Assembly: GCA_026395895.1 (NCBI GenBank) | Contig: JAPLXV010000021.1 | Coordinates: 1 to 54,700 of the forward strand | Origin: Candidatus Nomurabacteria bacterium | GTDB lineage: Bacteria > Patescibacteriota > Minisyncoccia > Phycocordibacterales > UBA9973 | DNA: 54,700 nt | Direction of reading: 5' to 3' | Part shown: positions 10,554 to 26,803 of the stretch, piece after piece | Numbering within the stretch: position 1 is the first letter of the stretch | Layout of the letters: every line of letters starts with the position of its first letter | Position numbers and translations under genes: made by a program | The notes under the pieces: model-generated | The model's input: the letters and a program-made list of their open reading frames with translations, nothing else | What the model was told of the DNA's origin: nothing | Databases searched by the model: none

Positions 10554-10997
10554 ATGAAAGTAATTTTTTTACAAGATGTGCCTAGGGTAGGTAAAAAATA
10601 CGATATCAAAGAAGTAAATGATGGTTATGCCATAAATTTTTTATTTCCTAAAAAATGGGCCACTCTCGCTACTCCTAAAGCTGTAGCAGAAATTGAAAAA
10701 TATAAAAAGAATATAATTATAGAGAGGGAAGTGCAAGAAGAACTTTTAATAAAAAATCTAGAGGAAATAAAAAATAAAACGATTACTATCAAAGCCAAAG
10801 CTGATGAAAAAGGTCATCTTTTTTCTGCTATTCATGAAAAAATGTTAGTGGAAGCGATGGAAAAAGAATATCACGCTCTAATAGATGAAAAATTTATTGT
10901 GCTAGAAAAACAAATAAAAGAAATAGGAGAATTTGAAATCCCGATTGTTATCAAAAACAAAAAATCTTCGTTTAAACTTATTGTGGAGAAATTATAA
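10554..10997 (+). CDS. rplI: 50S ribosomal protein L9
   Basis: MKVIFLQDVPRVGKKYDIKEVNDGYAINFLFPKK is a typical L9 N-terminal domain. Confidence 0.95.
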   Translation: MKVIFLQDVPRVGKKYDIKEVNDGYAINFLFPKKWATLATPKAVAEIEKYKKNIIIEREVQEELLIKNLEEIKNKTITIKAKADEKGHLFSAIHEKMLVEAMEKEYHALIDEKFIVLEKQIKEIGEFEIPIVIKNKKSSFKLIVEKL

Positions 10998-11026
10998 AAA
11001 ATCTTCACGAGAGGGGATTTTTAGTT

Positions 11027-11299
11027 TTAAATTACATTTACTATTTTTTTGACTACCGTTCTGCCATTAAATGATGTCTTTCGTCTGGAGCCAAATTTGA
11101 CTGTTCCGGGTTTAAGAGCAAAAAGAGTATGATCTTTGCCCATAGATACGTTATTACCAGCCATTATGACTGTCCCGCGTTGACGGACGATAATAGAGCC
11201 AGACTGCGCTTTCTGACCATCAGCAAGTTTAGTACCAAGGTACTTTGGGTTTGAATCTCTTAAGTTTTTCGCCGTTCCGCCGGCTTTTCTATGTGCCAT
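11027..11299 (-). CDS. rpmA: 50S ribosomal protein L27
   Basis: [22 protein letters not shown]...IIVRQRGT is a canonical L27 sequence. Confidence 0.97.
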
Positions 11300-11418
11300 T
11301 TAATTAGTTTGTTAGGTTCTAGGTTCTAGCTTCTAGTTAAAAATAAACAGAAAATAAAACAATAGACTAATATTTAAAAATTATTTATAATAAGACAATT
11401 AAGAGTATAAACAATTAT

Positions 11419-11790
11419 ATGGAAAAAATCAAGCAATTTACGGAAAGTGATAAAGGAAAAGATATATTAGTTATTATCATCATTATTTTAGTGGGTTTGG
11501 GCTCATTTGAGCTAGGTAGACTATCAAAAAACAGCTCTTCGGGCCTTAAAATTGAATATCCGAGCCAAGAAAGCAATGTCTTAGAGTCTATAAATCAAAA
11601 TCCGACTAAATTAGCTCAAAATTCAACAAAATCAAATTCAGGGAATTTTTTCGCCTCAAGTAGGGGAACAAAATATTATTCTATAAGTTGTTCAGCGGGG
11701 AAAACTATTAAAGAGGAGAATAGAATATATTTTAATACATCTACAGAAGCACAAAGTGCCGGATATGAACTTTCTAGCGCATGTAAGTAA
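11419..11790 (+). CDS. Membrane-anchored hypothetical protein with C-terminal Ada-like Cys motif
   Basis: N-terminal TM helix. The C-terminus, YYSISCSAGKTIKEENRIYFNTSTEAQSAGYELSSAC, fits the YY-x3-C...EA-x2-AGY...C small-domain pattern common in CPR proteins. Confidence 0.55.
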   Translation: MEKIKQFTESDKGKDILVIIIIILVGLGSFELGRLSKNSSSGLKIEYPSQESNVLESINQNPTKLAQNSTKSNSGNFFASSRGTKYYSISCSAGKTIKEENRIYFNTSTEAQSAGYELSSACK

Positions 11791-11861
11791 TATCACCCTA
11801 CCGGAAAGATATATTGTGGGACACGATACTAATTAAAATATAAGGCCCAAAAGACCCTTCC

Positions 11862-12185
11862 CTACGGCCTATTGACGGTAGGTGCATTCAATTCGTAGTC
11901 TGTTGGCTGACCGTCACGAATTCTTTCCATATTATTTATAAAAGATTTCCAAAAAATATTTATAAAAATATCATTCCATAAATATGATGCAGGCGCTTTA
12001 AAATAATCATTCCATAAATTTCTAGTCCCTCCCCCGACATAGGTTATGTTCTCTTGCGCAGTAGGGCTTTCTACGACCGATTTAACACTTATATTAAAAT
12101 AACTAAGCACAAAAATAAGAATGACCGCCAAAAGTAAAATCCCTATAATACTTATTCCTCTTTCCAATTTATTAAAATTAAACAT
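11862..12185 (-). CDS. Hypothetical membrane-anchored protein
   Basis: 107 aa with one N-terminal TM helix. No family was recognised. Confidence 0.5.
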   Translation of the reverse strand: MFNFNKLERGISIIGILLLAVILIFVLSYFNISVKSVVESPTAQENITYVGGGTRNLWNDYFKAPASYLWNDIFINIFWKSFINNMERIRDGQPTDYELNAPTVNRP

Positions 12186-12196
12186 TTTAGTTTTGA

Positions 12197-12343
12197 TTAG
12201 AAAACACTATTAAATAACGTCTTTATCCAATTAAAAACGTCTGACAAACTAATCTTAAAATATTTCATTATAAATAAAGCGATAATAATAAAAATTATTA
12301 AACGTAAGAATCCTCCTTGTTCATTTTTTAAATTATTAATCAT
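12197..12343 (-). CDS. Possible 48-aa single-TM micro-protein
   Basis: It translates to MINNLKNEQGGFLRLIIFIIIALFIMKYFKISLSDVFNWIKTLFNSVF and lies in tandem just upstream of 11862..12185. It is below the ORF-track size cut-off and has only a weak RBS. Confidence 0.3.
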   Translation of the reverse strand: MINNLKNEQGGFLRLIIFIIIALFIMKYFKISLSDVFNWIKTLFNSVF

Positions 12344-12396
12344 CCTTTTATTTTACCACTTTTACTTATAAGGAGGCAAGCCCGCCTTGACTCGCA

Positions 12397-13689
12397 TTAT
12401 AGGCGAGGCAGGTAATACATAGGGTCAAGGTAAGCGTTGATTGGAGCGATAGGTTGCGTAAGGATTCTCCCTGGGCAAGACTTACTTGGCACACTTTTTA
12501 CTTCCACAGCGTCCTTAGCATAAATTGAAACATGTAGATGCGGTCCCGTAGAATAGCCAGTATTGCCACTATAACCAACAACTTGTCCACGAGATACCTT
12601 ATCCCCTATATTTACTTTTATAAGCGATAAATGCCCAAAAGTACTAGCTAGACCATCATTGTATTTAATTAAAATAAAACGTCCAAAAGAAACTCCTGGG
12701 CATTGAACATCCGTATTACCAGTACCAGCCACCACACCATCTGCAAGAGCCTTAACTGAAGTACCTATGGAAGCGCGAAAATCGACACCATTATGGCTAC
12801 CATTTGCATAAAGACGTTTTCCTGCCTCTGTTTTACCAAAAAGCTGAGTAATATAAATATCATCTAGTGGCCAACTTAATACTCCCCCGTTAGGAAGTTT
12901 AGAAGGATCAAGAACATATTGTAACTGTGATTCATAATCACGTAATTCTTTTTCAAATGCATCTTTTTTGGCTAATCTATCTTTTAATAATTTTTGATAA
13001 TTGGTTTCGCTGTTTTTTGTTTGGGTCAGAAGTTTCTTTTTTTCTGCAGTATTTTGATCTACAATTTTTTTCTGGTCTGCCAATTTAGATTTTAAGGCTA
13101 CTAATTCATTTTTAGCGTCTGTCGTTTCTTTTCTAGTGTCCTCTAAATCACTTTTCATTTGTTTTAATTCAACTATCATTTGTCGAATTTTATTACCAAC
13201 AGCAACCATGTTGTCTATATCATTCCAAACTACCGTAAAATTATTTTCTGATAAAATAGTGGCTAATACATCATTTTGTTCAAATTCGTTTATTTGTCTA
13301 ATACTTAAAGATATTGCATCTATGCTATTTGAGATACGTTCTTGTTTATTATTTATTTCCAGGCTTAATTCTCGTATTTTGAGATTCGTTTTATCTATTT
13401 TATTTTGAGTTAAAGAAATATCAGCCACTAATTTTTTTCTAGTCAAGTCTAACTGTTTGATAGAAACATTCAATGAATTTTTTTGTTTTCCTAAACCATC
13501 TAACTCTATTTGATATTGCTTGATTTCTTCTTCTAGTTTACTTATGTCTGTATTTTTTTGACTTATTTTATCGCTCAGTTCTTGAGCCGTTTGAGCATAA
13601 GAAAAAACAATAGGAATAGTTATCAAAATTCCTAAAAATAATACAAATATATATCTATATAGCCTTTTGTAATCGTAATAAAGTTTCAT
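12397..13689 (-). CDS. M23 family metallopeptidase with N-terminal coiled coil (EnvC-like)
   Basis: TM/signal segment, long coiled coil, and LytM motifs HNGVDFRA and GNTGYSTGPHLHVSIY. Confidence 0.9.
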   Translation of the reverse strand: MKLYYDYKRLYRYIFVLFLGILITIPIVFSYAQTAQELSDKISQKNTDISKLEEEIKQYQIELDGLGKQKNSLNVSIKQLDLTRKKLVADISLTQNKIDKTNLKIRELSLEINNKQERISNSIDAISLSIRQINEFEQNDVLATILSENNFTVVWNDIDNMVAVGNKIRQMIVELKQMKSDLEDTRKETTDAKNELVALKSKLADQKKIVDQNTAEKKKLLTQTKNSETNYQKLLKDRLAKKDAFEKELRDYESQLQYVLDPSKLPNGGVLSWPLDDIYITQLFGKTEAGKRLYANGSHNGVDFRASIGTSVKALADGVVAGTGNTDVQCPGVSFGRFILIKYNDGLASTFGHLSLIKVNIGDKVSRGQVVGYSGNTGYSTGPHLHVSIYAKDAVEVKSVPSKSCPGRILTQPIAPINAYLDPMYYLPRL

Positions 13690-15072
13690 TTTTTCCTAAA
13701 ATCTCGGCAATAATGAAAGGATCTGGTGATTTATCAAGTCCTGAAAGGGCGTAACGAATAGGGTGCAATACTTCTCCCCTGCTTTCTGATTTATTAGCTA
13801 TTTGCATCAAAATATTTTTTATATTTTCATTTGTAAAATCTTTTTCTTTTATCTCTTGAAGTGCATTTATAGCCAGTTTTAAATTTTCAGTTATTTTTTC
13901 TATAGAAGAATTCTTAAAGACTAGTTTTTCTTTTGCATATTTGGGTTCTTTATAAAAAAAGTCTAGTTCTCCCCTTTCTAACATCCCTTTTATATCTGAC
14001 CACTTGGAAATTCTCTCAAAAATTATTGGAACAATTTTCTCTATTTTTAATTCTTCCGGTAAATATTCAAAAATATTTTTTCTCAGCTCTTCAATCGAAA
14101 GTTTTTTCATATGCTCTTTATTTATCCAATCTAACTTATCATCATTCCATTGAGCCCCGGAATGCCCTACGCGAGAAATATCAAAAGCCTTTATTAATTC
14201 ATCCATTGTAAAGATTTCCCTATCATCTCCCGGATTCCAGCCTAAAAGTGCCAAGAAATTAATCATTGCTTCCGGCAAATATCCTTCATTTTTATATTCT
14301 AAAATATCTTTAGCGCCATCTCTTTTGCTTAATTTTTTATTCCCCCCTTCTCCCATAATTGGAGGTAAAGTAGCAAAAAGAGGAGGTTTGAAATCTAAAG
14401 CTTCATATAAAGACAAAAATTTGGGAACAGAAGAGATAAATTCTTGGCCACGCATTACGTGAGTCACACCCATTTCGATATCATCAACAATATGCGCAAA
14501 GTTATATGTTGGATAACTATCACTTTTTATTAAAATAAAATCATCTAAAGCTTCTGGCCCGGCAGATAAATCTCCATAAACCAAGTCATTCCATTTAAAA
14601 CTTTTTATTTCGGGTACTTTAAAGCGAAGCGGTTTAAGTACCCCGCCAGAGGACGGGCAAGCATCCCAAATATCAAATTTTTCTGGCCGATGTTCTCTAA
14701 ATAAAAATGGCTTTTTTTCTAATTCAGCTTTTTCGCGAAATTCATCAACTTCTTCTTCGGTATATGGATCAGGATAAGCTAAACCTTTATCTATTAAAAT
14801 CTGCGCGTATTTTTTATATAAATCCAATCTCTCTGATTGTAAATATGGGGCGTGTAGTCCTCCGATATTCGGTCCTTCGTCCCAATTAATTCCCAACCAT
14901 TTTAATGATTCAATAATATGGTCAATTGAACCTGCCACTTCCCTTTCTTTGTCATAAAGGTGCCTTTATTTTTCTTGGCCCAAAGCCAAGCATATAAAGC
15001 AGTGCGAACGCCACCTACATGCATAAAACCTGTCGGCGAAGGCGCAAATCTTGTAACAACTTTCTTTTCCAT
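13655..15072 (-). pseudogene. gltX: Glutamyl-tRNA synthetase interrupted by a short frame-breaking deletion near nt 14954
   Basis: The ATG at 15072 encodes [39 protein letters not shown] (HIGH motif). Two stray nt follow, then [28 protein letters not shown] in another frame. The near-universal ILRIEDTD block is absent. KLSKR is present downstream. Confidence 0.85.
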
Positions 15073-15088
15073 CTATCTATTTTAGCAT

Positions 15089-16219
15089 TTATTTTTCGTG
15101 ACTCAAAGCCATATCAACAAGCTCGCGGGCGATTTTGTAGGCAGCGTCAGGTTTGTTATATGCTTTAGCGCTTTGCGCCATTTTATTCCAAACATTTTTA
15201 TCATTCACGATTCTTTCAATTTCCGAACTCAAAATATTGGCCGTCATATTCATTTCTTCAATAACGTTACAAGCTCCAGTATGGGCATAACTAAAAGCAT
15301 TTTTCCTTTGATGATCTCCGTTGGTAGTGGTAATCGGAACAATAATAGACGGTACACCCCAAGAAGCTATTTCAAATATAGTTGACCCTGCCCTAGAAAC
15401 AATAATTGTTGCCACTCCAGCCGCCATTTTCATAGCAAGAGGATTTAAAAAAGCAAAAGGTAAATATCTCGATTTTTCTGGGCTAGGAGCAAGAATTACT
15501 TTTGCTTGTCCATTAACGCTTTTAAAATTATTCACTCCCGTTTGATGTATAATTTGAAAATTCTTTACAAGTCTTGGTAAAGCATCAAGTACCGTATTGT
15601 TTATAAGTTCTGCGCCCTGAGAACCACCTAAAATTAAAACAACTGGCAAATCTGATTCTAATTTAAAATATTGTAATGCTTCATTACGTGGAGCAGAATG
15701 TTCTATTTCGGTTCTGATTGGATGTCCCGTCCAAGCAACTGTTTTTTTAGGAAAATAATCGGCTGCTTCTTTAAAAGAAACAGCTACCCTTTTAGCAAAA
15801 TGTCCTGCCCATTTATTTACTCGGCCTGGTACAGAATCTGATTCATGAATAACCACAGGAATACGTAGAATTCTGGCTGCTAGAATAGCTGGGAATGACC
15901 CATAGCCACCTTTCCCAAAAACTACATCTGGATAAATTGAAAATATTTTATAAATGGCATTAATCGTACCAAAAAACATTTTAAAAATACCAATGAAATT
16001 TTTAAAAGAAAAATAAGTGCGTAATTTCCCTGCTTTTACTTCTTCATACGAAAGTCCATTTTCTAAAAGCATTTCTTTATCGTAAGGACTATCAGAAAAA
16101 TAATAAAGCTTGGCGCCTAATATTTTATCTTTATCTATTATTTGGTTGACTTTTTGAGCAACAGCGATAATTGGATAAAAATGTCCACCTGTTCCTCCTC
16201 CTGTAAATACTATTTTCAT
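15089..16219 (-). CDS. murG: Undecaprenyldiphospho-muramoylpentapeptide beta-N-acetylglucosaminyltransferase
   Basis: MKIVFTGGGTGGHFYPIIAVA plus a C-terminal GT28 domain. The start was chosen at 16219, just after the ftsW stop. Confidence 0.93.
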   Translation of the reverse strand: MKIVFTGGGTGGHFYPIIAVAQKVNQIIDKDKILGAKLYYFSDSPYDKEMLLENGLSYEEVKAGKLRTYFSFKNFIGIFKMFFGTINAIYKIFSIYPDVVFGKGGYGSFPAILAARILRIPVVIHESDSVPGRVNKWAGHFAKRVAVSFKEAADYFPKKTVAWTGHPIRTEIEHSAPRNEALQYFKLESDLPVVLILGGSQGAELINNTVLDALPRLVKNFQIIHQTGVNNFKSVNGQAKVILAPSPEKSRYLPFAFLNPLAMKMAAGVATIIVSRAGSTIFEIASWGVPSIIVPITTTNGDHQRKNAFSYAHTGACNVIEEMNMTANILSSEIERIVNDKNVWNKMAQSAKAYNKPDAAYKIARELVDMALSHEK

Positions 16220-21374: not shown

Positions 21375-21407
21375 TGAGAGAGATTATTAAAATGATTCGG
21401 TGGTGAA

Positions 21408-21665
21408 TTATGAAAGATGCTTGGAAACAAGTTTCGTCATTTCAAACATATTTACTACGCTTTTACCACCAAACACTTTCTTTAATGCAGCATCAGCATT
21501 GATATTACGCTTATTCTTTGGATCTTGAAGATTGTTCTTCTTGATATATACCCACAATGCTTTTACCACCTCAGATCTAGGCATAGGACCCTTGCCTACT
21601 ACTTCTGCCAACTCAGCGCTTATAATCATTGGCTTCATAAATGCGGAAACTTTTTTATCTGCCAT
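21408..21665 (-). CDS. SWIB/MDM2 domain protein
   Basis: MIISAELAEVVGKGPMPRSEVVKALWVYIKKNNLQDPKNKRNINADAALKKVFG matches the SWIB domain pattern. The start was chosen at MADKK (21665). An extended -10 (TGcTATAAT) lies at about 21735-21743 on the minus strand. Confidence 0.85.
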   Translation of the reverse strand: MADKKVSAFMKPMIISAELAEVVGKGPMPRSEVVKALWVYIKKNNLQDPKNKRNINADAALKKVFGGKSVVNMFEMTKLVSKHLS

Positions 21666-21800
21666 ATATTTTTCTTGTTTTGTTAATTTCAGCCATAAGC
21701 TGATCCGCCTCTGGCGGAAATTTATAATGTATCTATTATAGCACATATTGCCGAATCTTTCTCCCTTTTCTCGTATTTTTAGATCCAAACTTTAACCTTA

Positions 21801-22094
21801 TTATTGTTTGATTCTAAATGGTCGCTTATTAACTTCTTTAAGAATTTTAAGCGTTGCTTGTACTGAAAGATTATCACTAGGTAATAAAACCAAGCGATCA
21901 CCAAGGAGATTAAGTAGTGGGCTTAAAAATTCATCAGACCAAGAAGGTGATAATGTTAATACGTCAGAAAAATCTATTTCAAGCTCTTCGTTCTTTGAAA
22001 ACTCACGTAGAGTGGGTTGAAATGCCTTTAGAGCCTCACTGCCTAATTCCCGAGATATTAATGTTTTGCCAAATTTTCCTAATTGTAATTTCAT
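21801..22094 (-). CDS. STAS-like (DUF4325-type) small protein
   Basis: 97 aa. GKTLISRELGSEALKAFQPTLREFSKNEELEIDFSDVLTLSPSWSDEFLSPLL follows the DUF4325/STAS_2 pattern (R-x2-G ... DF-x-V ... S-x-S-x-DEF). It starts 20 nt after the GHKL gene. Confidence 0.7.
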   Translation of the reverse strand: MKLQLGKFGKTLISRELGSEALKAFQPTLREFSKNEELEIDFSDVLTLSPSWSDEFLSPLLNLLGDRLVLLPSDNLSVQATLKILKEVNKRPFRIKQ

Positions 22095-22114
22095 ATTTTT
22101 TACTAGTTAATATT

Positions 22115-22834
22115 TCAAAATTCTATTTTTGCTAAACATCCTCGCACAATACGCTGACCACGCGTAACACGAAATGCTTTATCAGAACCTTTCATACGTA
22201 CTTCAGCATCACCAGTAGTATAAAATAAATCAATTGGATTTTCAGTAATTACCTCTCGAACGAGTTTAAGCCCATTTCCTCGTTTTTCTGGTGCCCTGCC
22301 AGAAATAAATTCAGTAAAAGCAACTGTTACTGCAGCAACATGGTTTGAAAGTTCTGGCCGAACCTGACGTAATGTTTCTAAAATACCTAATCCTCTATCG
22401 GCAAGTATAATAATTCTTTTTTCTAAATTATAACCAAAAAAGATTCCTATTGTATCAGGCCATTTTCCTATATTATGAGCAAATGAATTATCGCCAATTT
22501 CTCCAGTAACGAGAACAATCAAAGAATATAATTTTTCAAATCCTGGCTGTTGCATTAGCGCATACTCCATTTTAGTCAATCTTGCATTAAAAATTGAGCT
22601 TGTTGAACAATAAAATGTGCTAGGAAATTCAACACCATCTTCTATCCATTCGGAAGCAAATTTCATTATATCACTGGTAAAAATTTCTAAATCTTTTTCA
22701 CGATAATATCGATGAGTTCCACCATCTTTTTTAATAGCAATTAATTTACCACTTTCATCCCAACGACGTAATGTGTTCAAAGAAACCCCAAGATATTCAG
22801 CTGCTTGGCTAATTGTTAATAATTTTTCATCCAT
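22115..22834 (-). CDS. MerR/excisionase-type HTH fused to a GHKL (anti-sigma-factor/RsbW-like) ATPase domain
   Basis: The N-terminus, LTISQAAEYLGVSLNTLRRWDESGKL, is a MerR-type HTH. The C-terminus has GHKL boxes: N-box EIGDNSFAHN, G1 DRGLGI and G2 GNGLKL. Confidence 0.75.
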   Translation of the reverse strand: MDEKLLTISQAAEYLGVSLNTLRRWDESGKLIAIKKDGGTHRYYREKDLEIFTSDIMKFASEWIEDGVEFPSTFYCSTSSIFNARLTKMEYALMQQPGFEKLYSLIVLVTGEIGDNSFAHNIGKWPDTIGIFFGYNLEKRIIILADRGLGILETLRQVRPELSNHVAAVTVAFTEFISGRAPEKRGNGLKLVREVITENPIDLFYTTGDAEVRMKGSDKAFRVTRGQRIVRGCLAKIEF

Positions 22835-22856
22835 ATTTATATAATATCATATTATC

Positions 22857-22906
22857 TAAATCTACACAAATAACCATTAAATCTACCCAAAAATACATAA
22901 ATCTAC
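22857..22906. promoter_or_regulatory. Three direct TAAATCTAC repeats phased at 21/20 bp upstream of the HTH-GHKL gene
   Basis: Copies lie at 22857-22865, 22878-22886 and 22898-22906, which is 23-72 nt upstream of the start codon at 22834. Confidence 0.5.
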
Positions 22907-23018
22907 TCATTTATCGTCCATAACTGTACATTTTACTATTTATTGTCAAGTAAAACGTAAATTTGAGGTAAAAATAGACTATATTTACGTTAAATTACAT
23001 TAAACAATTTCTGAGTCA

Positions 23019-25046
23019 TTAAAACCAAATCTCATTTTTATCTAAAACCCTAACAACTACCCCCTGCATTCTAACTTCTTCGTTTGTTTTAAACTTTAAT
23101 GGTTTATGTTCCGAGTTACTAGAGTTGGGTTTTAAAACTAAGTAACCATTTTCTCTACGATATTCCTTTATTGTAGCATCATCGCCAATAAGTGCTACTA
23201 CCTTTTTCCCTTCTTCTGGACGGTAATTTTTCACACATAAAACTAGGTCTCCATCATTAATTCCAGCTTTATTCATAGAATCCCCTTTCGTCCTCAAAAC
23301 AAAATATTTTGATCCTTTTGACATATAATCTTTTCTAACTGAAATCATTTCTTGAACTGTCGGATCAGCATACATTAACTCTCCACAACCAACTGATTCA
23401 AACAACGGAACGCTAACCATTTCAAATTTATCAGCATATGGCGACCTAACCAGACTAATTATTTTTTCTTCTTTCTCTTTATTGTTTATTTTATTTTTAA
23501 AGTATTCTGCAAGTTTTTTATCTACTGCATAAATAAAAGTCCCTTTTATACCTCTCGTCAAAAGAGTTTTATATATATTTATAATATATCTTTCTAATTC
23601 CAAGGGATCAGTAATACCCCTCCAGCCATTCGTATCCATGTAATTATCTGAGTTTATAATTAATTTATTATTTTCTTCATCATATGAGAGTTCTGGTCCA
23701 ATAATTACACCAACATAATTTAAGTCATATCCCTGCACCGTGTGAATACAACCAACCTCATTTATTGCATTTTTCGAATTTACCCAATCTTGATTTGTAC
23801 TATTCCAAAACAATTTCAAACCATCAATTTCAATATCATGGATATTCGGATTATTTTTGCTTTTCCATTCCCACGCATATCCAGCAACTATTCTACAAAG
23901 CTTTAATTCCAAATCTTTTTTCTTTATATCGTCTACCATTTTATGTATATCTTCATAAAACCTTAAATCATAGTTCGGAAAACTGTATTTACTTAAATTT
24001 TTTAAATCAAACAAATCATCAATAAAATTAATATATTCTTCGCCAGCACTTATTCTTTGTTGGCTAGTTAAATCATAATGAACAGCATTCATTTGAGTAA
24101 ACTTTCTAGGTCTTACATCGGCTGGTTTAATTGTCTGATTTTTATCATAAAAAAATATTTGATGCTTAGATGATTTTAAAATCCAATCCAACTCAGTTCC
24201 AGAATTATCAAGATCTAATTTTTTATTTGTTATATCAAAAGACTGATAATTAGCTATATTTTTTCTTTGTTTTAATCTATGTGCTTCATCAACGATCAAA
24301 ATATCATAATTTTTATTTACAACTTCATTTGGACCAATCACCATACTTGTTTTTAGCCCTTTTACTTGAGAAAAAACTTTTCTTATTGTTTTCCTAAGAG
24401 ATGTCATGGGTACAACCAAAGCTATCTCAAGATTTTTTGTTTCTTCTTTTTCTTTTAAAAATTTGGCCAAATACACCGCTAATATCGTTTTTCCTGTTCC
24501 TGGTTTACCATTTACTACAAAAGTTTTTTCTTTATTCTCTTTTATATCTTTAAATATACTTCTGGCAACAATTATTTGATCTTCTGTAAGGGATTTATAC
24601 GGTGAATATTTAAATAAATCACTATTCTTTATTTGTACCAAATCTTTTTTTACGAGAGACATTTCCTGTAACTTTTGCCAAATAGTTTCAAACTTTGCTT
24701 GATATTTTTGTCTATCATAATAATTATGATTCAATAAACCTTGGTTCCCATTTTGTAATACAAAAGAACCTTCAGCAGACATATATTGGATAAGGGAAGA
24801 TTCAATGTCCAATGTAGCTGACTTGTTGTATTCTTCATCGCTAATTATATGTATCCTTTTTAACTTTTTTCTTTCTGGGTTTTCGTAATGCTGATTACTT
24901 CTACCATAAATATTAACTGTTTCTCCAATATATATTTCTCTGCCATCTTCAATAAGATAAACAACTGGCCAATTAATACCAAAATGATATGACCTCATCT
25001 GATCAAATTCCTTCTTATCAAACAATAAGGTCTTTATCTCAGCCAT
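23019..25046 (-). CDS. GIY-YIG nuclease / DUF2075 (SF1-like P-loop helicase) / LexA-UmuD-type S24 peptidase fusion protein
   Basis: The N-terminus, VVYLIEDGREIYIGETVNIYGRSNQH, is GIY-YIG-like. The core has Walker A GKPGTGKT, Walker B ILIVDEAHRL and HTVQGYDLNYVGVII. The C-terminus has PLFESVGCGE (cleavage-site-like C-G as in UmuD), GDSM (Ser nucleophile) and ATIKEY (Lys). Confidence 0.8.
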   Translation of the reverse strand: MAEIKTLLFDKKEFDQMRSYHFGINWPVVYLIEDGREIYIGETVNIYGRSNQHYENPERKKLKRIHIISDEEYNKSATLDIESSLIQYMSAEGSFVLQNGNQGLLNHNYYDRQKYQAKFETIWQKLQEMSLVKKDLVQIKNSDLFKYSPYKSLTEDQIIVARSIFKDIKENKEKTFVVNGKPGTGKTILAVYLAKFLKEKEETKNLEIALVVPMTSLRKTIRKVFSQVKGLKTSMVIGPNEVVNKNYDILIVDEAHRLKQRKNIANYQSFDITNKKLDLDNSGTELDWILKSSKHQIFFYDKNQTIKPADVRPRKFTQMNAVHYDLTSQQRISAGEEYINFIDDLFDLKNLSKYSFPNYDLRFYEDIHKMVDDIKKKDLELKLCRIVAGYAWEWKSKNNPNIHDIEIDGLKLFWNSTNQDWVNSKNAINEVGCIHTVQGYDLNYVGVIIGPELSYDEENNKLIINSDNYMDTNGWRGITDPLELERYIINIYKTLLTRGIKGTFIYAVDKKLAEYFKNKINNKEKEEKIISLVRSPYADKFEMVSVPLFESVGCGELMYADPTVQEMISVRKDYMSKGSKYFVLRTKGDSMNKAGINDGDLVLCVKNYRPEEGKKVVALIGDDATIKEYRRENGYLVLKPNSSNSEHKPLKFKTNEEVRMQGVVVRVLDKNEIWF

Positions 25047-25048
25047 AA

Positions 25049-25396
25049 TTATAATTTATTATATTTAGTATGTTTCCCTTTTGCTTTTTTTACTGGATAT
25101 TTTTTAGCATTCTTTTTTATTTTTTTATCTAAAGCATCTAAAATATCAATTTTCAAATCATGACTCATTAATAATATCCAATAAAAAACATCAGCTAGTT
25201 CTTCGCCAATATGCTCTTTGTGAGTTTTTATATATTCTTCAACTTCTTCTTTTGATTTCCATTGAAAATGTTCTAAAACCTCAGCAGCTTCTAGAGATAA
25301 AGAAATTGCTAAATCTTTTGCATTATGAAACTGTTTCCAGTTTCGTGCATCTCGAAACGCTAGTATTTTTTTAGTCAATTTTTTTGTATCTATCAT
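25049..25396 (-). CDS. MazG-like all-alpha nucleoside triphosphate pyrophosphohydrolase
   Basis: ILAFRDARNWKQFHNAKDLAISLSLEAAEVLEHFQW...GEELADVFYWILLMS shows the E-x2-E...E-x2-D pattern of small MazG/YpjD-type enzymes. Its stop lies 2 nt before the start of the next gene. Confidence 0.8.
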   Translation of the reverse strand: MIDTKKLTKKILAFRDARNWKQFHNAKDLAISLSLEAAEVLEHFQWKSKEEVEEYIKTHKEHIGEELADVFYWILLMSHDLKIDILDALDKKIKKNAKKYPVKKAKGKHTKYNKL

Positions 25397-25445: not shown

Positions 25446-26207
25446 TTACAATCCACTTAATTGACTATTTAGCTCGCGTTCGAGTGTCGCAGAAAAATCT
25501 CTTATAATCCCTTGTTGATCAATCGGTAAAAATGCACTAAGCTCATTTTTAAAATTTATTTGTTTTGCCTCCGCAATAATAATGTCTTTAATCGGACCAA
25601 GTTTTTTCTTTTGTTCAATAGAAAGCATTCCTTTGCGCATTATAATATAAAGATCATAAAAATCACGTGGTTTTTTGCGTTCAAGTAATGCACCAAAAAT
25701 TTTTTCATCAATTAATTCATTTTGTGGCAAGTGAGTAATTGTATATGTAGGCGCAAAATTATTTGAAATACTATCAACTTCACCTTTTATAATCACATCA
25801 CTTCGTGTCGAAATGTTTATCTCTACACCAATTGGTTGATAATCAAACATTTGAAATGTAGCAATTCCCAAATAACCGCCACTTGTCGCACCAAATCTAT
25901 CTCCAAGCTTAACTTTTATTCCCATTTTTTCTATTTCGGAAAGTGTTTTTAAAAACAACTCCTCAATAAATGATTTAACTTCATGCGGAACAACACCAAA
26001 AAGAGAAAAATCTAAATCTTCAGAAAAACGCGGGCTGCCATAAACAATACGAAGTGCAGTGCCTCCTTTAAAAAGTAATTTTTCAGAATTTGGTAATTTA
26101 TATAACTCTCCCAAAAAAATATGTTGAAAATATTCTCGAACTACATTCGGAAATATTCCCATTTGATATTGCCTGCTCAATTTTTCGAGTGTTTCTATAG
26201 ATATCAT
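25446..26207 (-). CDS. AbiEii/AbiGii-family nucleotidyltransferase toxin (DUF1814)
   Basis: LLFKGGTALRIVYGSPRFSEDLDFS is the signature region of AbiEii NTases. It overlaps the upstream AbiEi-like gene by 4 nt. Confidence 0.85.
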   Translation of the reverse strand: MISIETLEKLSRQYQMGIFPNVVREYFQHIFLGELYKLPNSEKLLFKGGTALRIVYGSPRFSEDLDFSLFGVVPHEVKSFIEELFLKTLSEIEKMGIKVKLGDRFGATSGGYLGIATFQMFDYQPIGVEINISTRSDVIIKGEVDSISNNFAPTYTITHLPQNELIDEKIFGALLERKKPRDFYDLYIIMRKGMLSIEQKKKLGPIKDIIIAEAKQINFKNELSAFLPIDQQGIIRDFSATLERELNSQLSGL

Positions 26208-26803
26208 TGTAGCGTTGTTGTTATTATGCTTAAAAGTTTTTTATTACCAAATAGTGAAGCATATTTTTTCGCCCTAATGGGATTAATTTTTTCTTTATTG
26301 AAACGAGAAATCGGTTTTTGCCCATTCATCAATCTTAAATAATTTGTATCTACAAAAGCTTTTTCAGCATCAGCAATATTAAAACTGAGATTCTTTTGTT
26401 TTTGAATTTCATACCCAGTATAAGCAATTTTTTTAATTTTACGATAAGAAAAAATTTTTCCTAACGCTTCAAATCTACGTGTGGCTTTAGTAGTTACTGA
26501 AGTAATTTCATAAACCGTTTCTGGAATAACTCCATGGTATGAAAGCGCAAATTCAAGAGAAATATAAGATGGAGTGTAAAGTTTGCTAGCAACATAAACA
26601 TCGGGAGGCAAAATATCTGGAAAAGAATAAAATCCTTTCTTAAGTTGCACTACAAATCCTTGTTTTTTATACCTATGAAGTAGCGCGGATGCAGCAACAG
26701 AAGAAACTCCAAAAAGGGAGCGAATATCACTTGCGTTGAATATATATAACTTTTTACCCTTTATTTTTAAAGCAAAAAGTGTCTGATTCACCAATTTGAC
26801 CAT
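26204..26803 (-). CDS. AbiEi-family antitoxin-like transcriptional regulator
   Basis: N-terminal winged-helix-like region (IFNASDIRSLFGVSSVAASALLHRYKKQGFVVQLKKGFY), about 200 aa, immediately upstream of and overlapping the AbiEii gene. Confidence 0.75.
   Translation of the reverse strand: MVKLVNQTLFALKIKGKKLYIFNASDIRSLFGVSSVAASALLHRYKKQGFVVQLKKGFYSFPDILPPDVYVASKLYTPSYISLEFALSYHGVIPETVYEITSVTTKATRRFEALGKIFSYRKIKKIAYTGYEIQKQKNLSFNIADAEKAFVDTNYLRLMNGQKPISRFNKEKINPIRAKKYASLFGNKKLLSIITTTLQ

Follow-up and report, generated by a model that had tools for sequence, protein, structure and literature searches.

The window analysed here, 54,700 nucleotides (nt) of contig JAPLXV010000021.1 (assembly GCA_026395895.1) from a Candidatus Nomurabacteria bacterium, carries on its minus strand two adjacent genes, referred to below as K and S. 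K is predicted to encode a helix-turn-helix (HTH) domain followed by a GHKL domain, and S a small STAS-like protein. Both open reading frames (ORFs), of 239 and 97 amino acids (aa) and 20 nt apart in the ORF list of the window, lie exactly as a first-pass annotation of this DNA had placed them, and its reading of their domains is upheld by profiles, motifs, and AlphaFold2 (AF2) models. The features of the two genes are as follows:

22115-22834, minus strand: gene K, a 239-aa HTH-GHKL protein, probable DNA-binding serine kinase (ORF, AF2 model, family conservation)
22685-22822, minus strand: winged HTH of the HTH_17/MerR/excisionase/BldC type, K residues 5-50 (Pfam, NCBIfam, and PDB profile matches)
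22520-22672, minus strand: helical connector, K residues 55-105, with helices at 56-66 and 79-94 (AF2 secondary structure, conservation)
22118-22519, minus strand: compact GHKL (Bergerat-fold) ATP-binding domain, K residues 106-239 (invariant columns, Foldseek, hhalign)
22472-22501, minus strand: N box of K, E112-N121
22385-22399, minus strand: G1 box of K, D146-G150
22265-22282, minus strand: G2 box of K, R185-K190
21801-22094, minus strand: gene S, a 97-aa DUF4325/STAS-like partner (ORF, DUF4325 matches in the family, AF2 model)
21942-21950, minus strand: candidate phospho-acceptors S49 and S51 (LSPSW) of S, at the N-terminus of helix 50-67

Residues 5-50 of K match HTH_17 (E 8e-12), MerR_1 (E 2.9e-10), and MerR (E 1.9e-9) in Pfam, all above thresholds, as well as the excisionase-type TIGR01764 and the BldC-type NF033787 in NCBIfam; these matches confirm the MerR/excisionase-type HTH that had been proposed. 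A profile built from a 51-sequence alignment of the K family retrieved MerR-/BldC-type entries only among PDB sequences (a MerR-like protein and BldC, 6amk/6ama), and no GHKL entry. K retains the N-terminal winged HTH of the MerR family; in the AF2 model the coiled-coil dimerisation helix and effector domain of MerR are absent, and the GHKL domain follows the HTH. The BldC/Xis-type MerR-like HTHs are similarly small winged HTHs without the MerR coiled coil, and BldC itself, the closest HTH of solved structure by profile, forms cooperative multimers arranged head to tail on direct repeats (PMC5859096). Phased direct repeats, here predicted as the targets of K, constitute a further likeness to BldC; however, BldC is a stand-alone 68-aa protein, whereas the HTH of K is fused to an ATP-binding signalling domain. 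The PADLOC mad1 model also matches K (E 1.9e-14), though it covers residues 1-55 only. The MADS gene set includes mad2-mad8, with Mad6, Mad7, and Mad8 mandatory, while Mad1 is a generic regulator dispensable for MADS defence; because only the generic HTH is common to Mad1 and K, and the other seven MADS genes (mad2 being a methylase) are absent, membership in this system was ruled out.

The GHKL motifs previously noted in K (EIGDNSFAHN, DRGLGI, and GNGLKL) are real, and coincide with columns that are invariant throughout the K family alignment: E112, N116, H120, and N121 in the N box; D146, G148, and G150 in G1; and R185, G186, G188, L189, and K190 in G2. Sub-threshold matches to HATPase_c_2 and HATPase_c occur in 10 and 3 of the 51 relatives, respectively. 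In the profile check that the first-pass annotation had suggested, HTH_17 was found, HATPase_c was not reached for K, and DUF4325 remained below its cut-off for S. The AF2 model of K (predicted local distance difference test, pLDDT, 89.7; predicted template modelling score, pTM, 0.80) was compared with the PDB using Foldseek; the top 50 matches were all Hsp90, TRAP1, GRP94, or GyrB/ParE-type ATPase domains (probability 0.85-1.0), the best reaching a probability of ~1.0 and E ~2e-4. With hhalign, the K family profile (A1) aligned to Escherichia coli VapK over the whole GHKL domain (probability 90.6%, E 1.3e-6, 30% identity), whereas the N, G1, and G2 boxes of SpoIIAB lined up weakly (E 0.12); by these alignments the GHKL domain of K appears much closer to VapK than to SpoIIAB. 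With all three boxes in place and a Bergerat alpha/beta sandwich in the model, though without a score at the Pfam gathering threshold, K is predicted to be a member of the GHKL superfamily. Among 1.8 billion proteins, this GHKL core forms a small family, with 292 cluster representatives reaching E <= 1e-3. In relatives of K the core is joined to other DNA-binding domains (MarR/HTH_24/HTH_11) or to none; given these alternative fusions, the kinase core has been attached to DNA more than once.

The S protein of the window scores 17.8 bits against DUF4325 (PF14213), below the 23-bit cut-off. However, the profile is matched by 44 of 44 S family members (best E 2e-6), and many homologs 85% identical to S carry PF14213 in precomputed annotation. 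The AF2 model of S (pLDDT 93.1) has its best structural matches in the PDB among RsbS, the STAS domain of RsbR, and SpoIIAA (template modelling score 0.5-0.68; Foldseek E 0.15-1). Family-wide profile matches and, more weakly, the structure are in line with the earlier description of a DUF4325/STAS-like protein. The sole PDB sequence reached by the S profile is VapS (9z7o), whose own homologs are uniformly PF14213; a plasmid search for VapS recovered solely a 35-aa DUF4325 fragment on a Leptotrichia plasmid. Across loci, S measures 94-108 aa and consists of the STAS-like domain only, with neither a winged HTH nor a tail as output module. S51 is invariant even in relatives at ~35% identity, and S49 is Ser or Thr in the close family; in the model these residues open helix 50-67, the canonical acceptor position of STAS domains. 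The phosphorylated Ser48 of VapS (native numbering) aligns at P50, between the two candidates.

Loci of K-S relatives that were compared with the window are numbered L001-L105. S lies directly after K, within a few tens of nt, in 93 of 94 loci, and also follows HTH-less relatives of K (31-40% identity), so that the synteny proposed as a check of the pair holds in related genomes. A scan of one genome per GTDB species located the pair, at 66-90% identity, in the genomes of at least 596 species of Patescibacteria, including Nomura-, Taylor-, Azam-, Giovannoni-, Uhr-, Falkow-, Doudna-, Kerfeld-, Andersen-, Berkel-, and Peregrinibacteria; the few records assigned to other phyla probably represent mis-binned contigs. 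Clustered at 90%, the relatives of K number >4,000; the top 120 are without exception from Patescibacteria and 85-91% identical, and S behaves alike. All distant relatives are annotated as "hypothetical" and carry no functional name.

Synonymous divergence (dS) from the window gene is saturated (1 to infinity), with nonsynonymous divergence (dN) of 0.06-0.28. Because dS is saturated, the identity of K and S reflects long-term purifying selection, and recent horizontal transfer was ruled out family-wide as its cause. A phage origin was likewise ruled out, given that a single relative was found among 2.9 million viral contigs (IMG/VR). Median identity between the window and the compared loci is 80-84% for K and S, as against 29-56% for other common proteins, and the pair is among the slowest-evolving in these genomes. 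Comparative evidence shows that K and S behave as a functional unit under strong constraint. Against the close relative L014, the K-S pair is 98-99% identical, ScpB 92%, ScpA 88%, and an S11 peptidase 76%. At the nucleotide level, the cassette and the adjacent SWIB gene (window 21406-22991 vs L014:7104-8687) are 96.4% identical, compared with 85% for the adjacent ScpA and 82% for ScpB/S11, a difference that points to either recent recombination of this segment or an unusually low rate of synonymous change.

Wherever K occurs, the 75 nt upstream of it are conserved too, whereas sequence further upstream is not. The features of this region are:

22835-22869, minus strand: predicted promoter, with a -35 element, a 17-nt spacer, and an extended -10 element
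22864-22869, minus strand: -35 element TTGTGT, inside repeat R3
22841-22849, minus strand: extended -10 element TGATATTAT, with the ATG 6 nt after it
22857-22908, minus strand: candidate operator of three direct repeats, reading (T/A)TGnGTAGATTTA on the minus strand
22857-22868, minus strand: repeat R3
22878-22888, minus strand: repeat R2
22898-22908, minus strand: repeat R1
22920-22926, minus strand: possible degenerate fourth copy, CAGTTAT

The promoter pattern TTGnnT-17-TGnTAnnnT was found in 78 of 80 unique loci, with a spacer of exactly 17 nt. This arrangement does not correspond to a MerR-type operator situated within a 19-20-nt spacer, as all 78 loci have the 17-nt spacer and the direct repeats lie over and upstream of the -35 element. 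The distance from the end of the -10 element to the ATG is 6-7 nt in 62 of the 78 loci, so close that a leaderless mRNA is predicted. In Berkelbacteria-type loci (L090-L097), which have the same promoter, a leader of 15-19 nt comes after it and carries the Shine-Dalgarno-like motif AAGAGG; the contrast with the (mostly) leaderless Parcubacteria-type loci would constitute a lineage-specific switch of translation initiation for K.

The 9-nt core of the repeats, TAAATCTAC on the plus strand, starts at positions 22857, 22878, and 22898, and occurs four times in the whole window against 0.92 expected. Repeats are spaced 21 and 20 nt apart in the window; over all loci, spacings of 20 nt (62 cases) and 21 nt (82 cases) were observed. 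The proximal repeat, R3, overlaps the -35 element of the K promoter. Phased pairs of repeats number 93 at K promoters as opposed to three elsewhere in 1.17 Mb of flanking DNA, and two of these three lie in L090, where the cassette is duplicated in tandem. The duplicated segments (L090:5843-10855 and 10840-15852) are 5 kb long, 99.7% identical, and include the whole cassette; the duplication may be real or an artefact of co-assembly. A wider regulon was considered and rejected, as there were no further phased sites in the window or the 1.17 Mb of flanks, and the apparent second site, in L090, is the cassette duplication.

All copies of the repeat change in concert between lineages, tracking residue 21 of the HTH in 74 of 74 loci. 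This residue falls within the recognition helix motif S-x-[N/D/Q/T]-TLRRW and is N21 in the window (SLNTLRRW). The repeat xGTAGATT occurs with N21 (37/37 loci) and GCATAG(A/T)TT with D21 (37/37 loci); additionally, GTATAGATT (GTATAG type) occurs with Q21 at one locus, and GTAGGTT with T21 in L105, a 50%-identical relative. Residue 14 (Y vs I) shares the N21/D21 split. On a neighbor-joining tree constructed from the GHKL domain and S, with the HTH excluded, the N and D states are clearly interleaved, and parsimony requires at least 14 switches between them, a count that is indicative only, the shallow part of the tree being poorly resolved. Residue 21 is thus a candidate specificity determinant of the K HTH. 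The co-variation suggests that the HTH of K itself reads the repeats, and therefore autoregulation; it provides strong comparative evidence that K binds the phased repeats over its own -35 element. The proposal in the first-pass annotation that these repeats are the DNA bound by K has accordingly gained ground: they are a likely operator, which keeps its position in nearly all loci and co-varies with the HTH.

That annotation had recognised no named system in the pair. Named relatives do exist, namely CapK/CapS and VapK/VapS/VapC (Chambers et al., EMBO J 2026; PMC13373217), though the architecture of K-S differs from both. CapK (HTH-STAS-GHKL), an experimentally demonstrated serine kinase, is switched on by single-stranded DNA (ssDNA), which it binds at a site between its STAS and GHKL domains, and phosphorylates Ser54 of CapS (STAS-winged HTH); phosphorylation dissolves the CapS dimer and de-represses the capS promoter and the downstream immune operon (PMC13373217). 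Deletion of the CapK HTH has no phenotype, and it is the C-terminal winged HTH of CapS that binds palindromes (PMC13373217). In VapKSC, phosphorylation of VapS has been proposed, from phosphomimetic and S48A mutants, to free a PIN toxin; VapK was not directly assayable (PMC13373217).

K-S resembles CapK-CapS in having an HTH-bearing GHKL kinase (a probable one in K-S) followed by a STAS partner, a promoter that is autoregulated (most likely so in K-S), and sometimes restriction-modification (R-M) or defence neighbors, and the logic whereby a phosphorylated STAS serine changes DNA binding is proposed for K-S as well. The DNA-binding output differs, however: in CapKS it resides on CapS and acts at palindromes, whereas in K-S the kinase's own HTH co-evolves with direct repeats and S has no DNA-binding domain. 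Further, CapKS lies upstream of an immune operon under its control, while K-S has no conserved downstream operon. As in VapK-VapS, the gene immediately after the GHKL gene encodes a small DUF4325/STAS protein in which a conserved Ser/Thr lies where helix 2 begins. VapK, however, has an N-terminal STAS domain and no HTH, where K has an HTH and a short helical connector, and VapS has a C-terminal tail inhibiting the adjacently encoded VapC PIN nuclease, whereas S has no such tail and is followed by no PIN or effector gene. Between the HTH and GHKL domains of K lie ~50 residues forming two helices, in which W63 and F82 are near-invariant in the family alignment; the VapK alignment begins at profile column 108, and in the model this connector appears too short to accommodate the internal STAS domain of CapK/VapK. 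As the internal STAS domain of CapK forms the ssDNA groove, K lacks the corresponding domain. In sum, K shares with these systems a homologous GHKL domain (computed against E. coli VapK only) and a DUF4325 gene directly after the kinase in nearly all loci, while the output module of the partner, whether a winged HTH or a VapC-inhibiting tail with a PIN gene, is absent from S. K-S is a new architectural variant of CapK/VapK-type kinase-STAS pairs.

The SpoIIAB-SpoIIAA and RsbW-RsbV modules offer a third comparison, as they likewise pair a minimal GHKL serine kinase of ~140 aa with a single-domain STAS substrate or antagonist, and S finds SpoIIAA and RsbS among its best structural matches. However, the sequence relation of K to these kinases is marginal, K carries a DNA-binding domain, S is of the DUF4325 type rather than canonical STAS (PF01740/PF13466), and there is no sigma factor or PP2C phosphatase gene near K-S.

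We favor, with moderate confidence, the reading that K and S form an autoregulated, self-contained signalling cassette, related to CapK/CapS and VapK/VapS, in which the DNA-binding output is carried by the kinase. K would bind, via its BldC/excisionase-like HTH, to three or four direct repeats two helical turns apart and, because the proximal repeat overlaps the -35 element, would most likely act as an autorepressor of the K-S operon at its mostly leaderless promoter. The C-terminal GHKL domain is predicted to bind ATP, and S may dock on this domain as SpoIIAA does on SpoIIAB or VapS on VapK. By analogy, K may phosphorylate S at S51 or S49, at the start of the second helix; homology, universal gene pairing, and motif conservation all suggest such a transfer. 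We infer that bound or phosphorylated S could alter the oligomerisation of K on the phased repeats, and with it transcription. Candidate inputs, again by analogy, are ssDNA or DNA damage (as for CapK) and the ATP/ADP ratio (as for SpoIIAB/RsbW). The suggestion that a kinase-like domain is here wired directly to DNA binding, made in the first-pass annotation, is upheld in this scheme.

Several observations weigh against this reading. The window K itself has no HATPase_c match in Pfam or NCBIfam, and its best structural matches are Hsp90 and GyrB with no protein kinases, so an ATPase-only role is possible. The Foldseek E-values linking S to STAS folds are weak, and alignments of S to VapS are marginal (E 0.3 and 0.0055). 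Which residue of S, S49 or S51, would accept the phosphate is ambiguous, and no phosphatase was found. There is no second phased operator site in the window, and none at the promoters of the neighboring island. The shallow part of the tree beneath the count of HTH switches is poorly resolved. Finally, HTH-less K-S pairs exist, which implies that the core pair has a function without DNA binding and that the HTH might serve autoregulation only.

In Patescibacteria (the candidate phyla radiation), whose genomes are small, whose recognisable regulators are few, and for which genetics is almost lacking, K-S offers a rare handle on regulation. Because protein identity remains at 66-90% across class-level lineages despite saturated synonymous sites, the pair must do something important; conservation this extreme suggests that its role in Patescibacteria is central and physiological, as opposed to strain-specific defence. 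The pair also carries the kinase-STAS principle of CapK/VapK outside the defence loci of proteobacteria, the placement of the DNA-binding domain on the kinase being a new wiring, and the co-variation of a single HTH residue with the operator yields sharp predictions on specificity. A bolder possibility, which we hold only tentatively, is that the kinase is the transcription factor itself, an ultra-conserved, DNA-bound serine kinase and STAS switch that acts, in much of the Patescibacteria, as a central regulator of stress or physiology, with an input such as DNA damage/ssDNA or energy state and an HTH with a readable recognition code. If true, that code would be N, D, Q, and T at residue 21 for GTAG, CATAG, TATAG, and GTAGG, respectively.

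An additional protein target of K-S, such as a sigma factor, is a serious alternative. In its full form, classical partner switching, the GHKL domain of K would sequester a sigma factor or other conserved RNA polymerase component, S would be the anti-anti-sigma factor, and the HTH would only autoregulate or tether. The GHKL and STAS pairing would fit such a scheme, as would the weak matches to HATPase_c_2, the Pfam family of SpoIIAB/RsbW; HTH-less K-S pairs need an output other than DNA, extreme conservation would be expected with a highly conserved partner such as sigma-70, and in Azambacteria (L001-L004) the pair lies just downstream of dnaG-rpoD. However, the rpoD neighborhood is confined to this one lineage, and no sigma gene is a conserved neighbor across 85 loci. 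The GHKL domain is also much nearer to VapK than to SpoIIAB, and the HTH-operator co-evolution is stricter than a mere tether should need. We therefore regard partner switching as unlikely.

The structural matches of K to Hsp90, TRAP1, and GyrB ATPase domains, together with the lack of any kinase-family profile at threshold on the window K, raise a further alternative, in which K is an Hsp90/MutL/MORC-type GHKL ATPase rather than a kinase, S is a non-phosphorylated regulatory or adaptor subunit, and an ATP-driven change alters DNA binding or structure. The domain is, however, minimal (~134 aa), as in SpoIIAB, and has no transducer domain of the kind present in GyrB, MutL, and Hsp90; its best sequence relative is VapK, a homolog of the serine kinase CapK; and the invariant serine of S falls within the canonical STAS phospho-site region. 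These data make an ATPase-only K quite unlikely, and the kinase-STAS cassette is retained as the preferred interpretation.

The genomic context of K-S varies widely. Beyond the Azambacteria, the pair occurs with Fic upstream and RadC, ParE, and type I R-M downstream (L005-L006), with NYN and trpS (L007-L009), with MacB (L010-L013), and with def-fmt (L103). Clustering of 912 ORFs from 85 loci revealed no conserved third component, with no neighbor family present in more than 10 of the 85; the commonest were HsdM, a small GIY-YIG protein, BipA, a LexA-S24-methylase fusion, Fic, RadC, and HsdS. The fusions of a LexA DNA-binding domain, an S24 peptidase, and an N6/N4 DNA methylase lie within 6 kb of the cassette at L041:12221-13654 and at seven other loci (8/85 loci).

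In the window and its close relatives, a K-S-SWIB block is constant, and what is exchanged is the cargo immediately upstream of the K promoter: a fusion of SLFN-type helicase and S24 peptidase, MazG, and AbiEii in the window; type III R-M in L014; and a D12 methylase with ResIII in L015. This pattern places the pair at the edge of the island rather than among its cargo, and in the window it lies at the border between the variable island and a conserved SWIB-ScpA-ScpB block; in L014, ScpA and ScpB come further downstream, after different intervening genes. The location within an accessory island that had been assumed in the first-pass annotation is thus replaced by a distribution over hundreds of Patescibacteria species genomes in unrelated, often housekeeping contexts. 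The SWIB/MDM2-domain protein (21408-21788, minus strand; E 2e-31) lies directly 3' of S, and occupies the same place in L014, though not in other lineages. Judging by the 85-aa gene call in L014, this gene probably has its true start at an internal ATG.

These neighborhoods bear on the possibility that K-S, in the manner of CapK/CapS, senses DNA damage or phage and switches on an adjacent defence island, as the first-pass annotation had also suggested for the neighboring defence genes. The cassette does abut variable defence cargo in the window, L014, and L015; the commonest neighbors are of R-M or toxin-antitoxin types (HsdM, HsdS, Fic, RadC, and GIY-YIG), at 6-10 of 85 loci each; and 20% of capKS loci also adjoin R-M systems (PMC13373217). 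However, most loci have housekeeping neighbors with no conserved third gene, and the phased operator repeats occur, in 1.17 Mb of flanking DNA, essentially only at the cassette's own promoters and are absent from those of the island. In the window, moreover, the island genes lie upstream of K and the downstream gene is the conserved SWIB gene, and a cassette that stays while the cargo changes is better explained by an integration hot spot beside a conserved gene than by a dedicated regulator. Control of the adjacent island is for these reasons improbable. That K is an excisionase-like recombination directionality factor, or K-S a toxin-antitoxin or abortive-infection system of a mobile island, we consider very improbable. 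In favor of this reading are the excisionase-family match of the HTH, the binding of Xis proteins to phased direct repeats, the position of the cassette at island borders and, in L105, directly after a large serine recombinase, and the relation to VapKSC, a toxin-antitoxin system. Against it, no gene for a recombinase, a PIN protein, or another effector is conserved nearby, viral contigs hold the lone match noted above, the saturated synonymous sites and strong purifying selection across Patescibacteria classes are unlike mobile or addiction modules, and the promoter that the repeats overlap has a spacer fixed at 17 nt.

The serine recombinase gene of L105 (L105:4191-5861, an IMG/VR contig) ends ~25 nt before the cassette operator, and still further upstream lies a terminase gene. 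Considered alongside the exchange of cargo among the window, L014, and L015, this arrangement suggests that the upstream edge of the cassette, itself conserved, is a hot spot at which prophages and islands integrate; DNA so conserved may serve as a landing site for them, and this may explain the build-up of cargo beside the cassette.

The variable defence cargo upstream of the cassette in the window includes a MazG-like pyrophosphatase (25049-25396, minus strand), an AbiEii nucleotidyltransferase toxin (25446-26207, minus strand), and an overlapping 199-aa ORF (26204-26803, minus strand) that is probably its AbiEi partner. The gene nearest to the K promoter (23019-25046, minus strand) encodes a 675-aa fusion protein with a weak GIY-YIG match at its N-terminus, a helicase of the Schlafen group 3/DUF2075 type (E 5e-66), and, at the C-terminus, a LexA-like S24 peptidase (E 5e-24); PADLOC returned weak Nhi/AbiO-like matches for this protein. 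This unusual set of domains suggests a self-cleaving, damage-responsive defence helicase.

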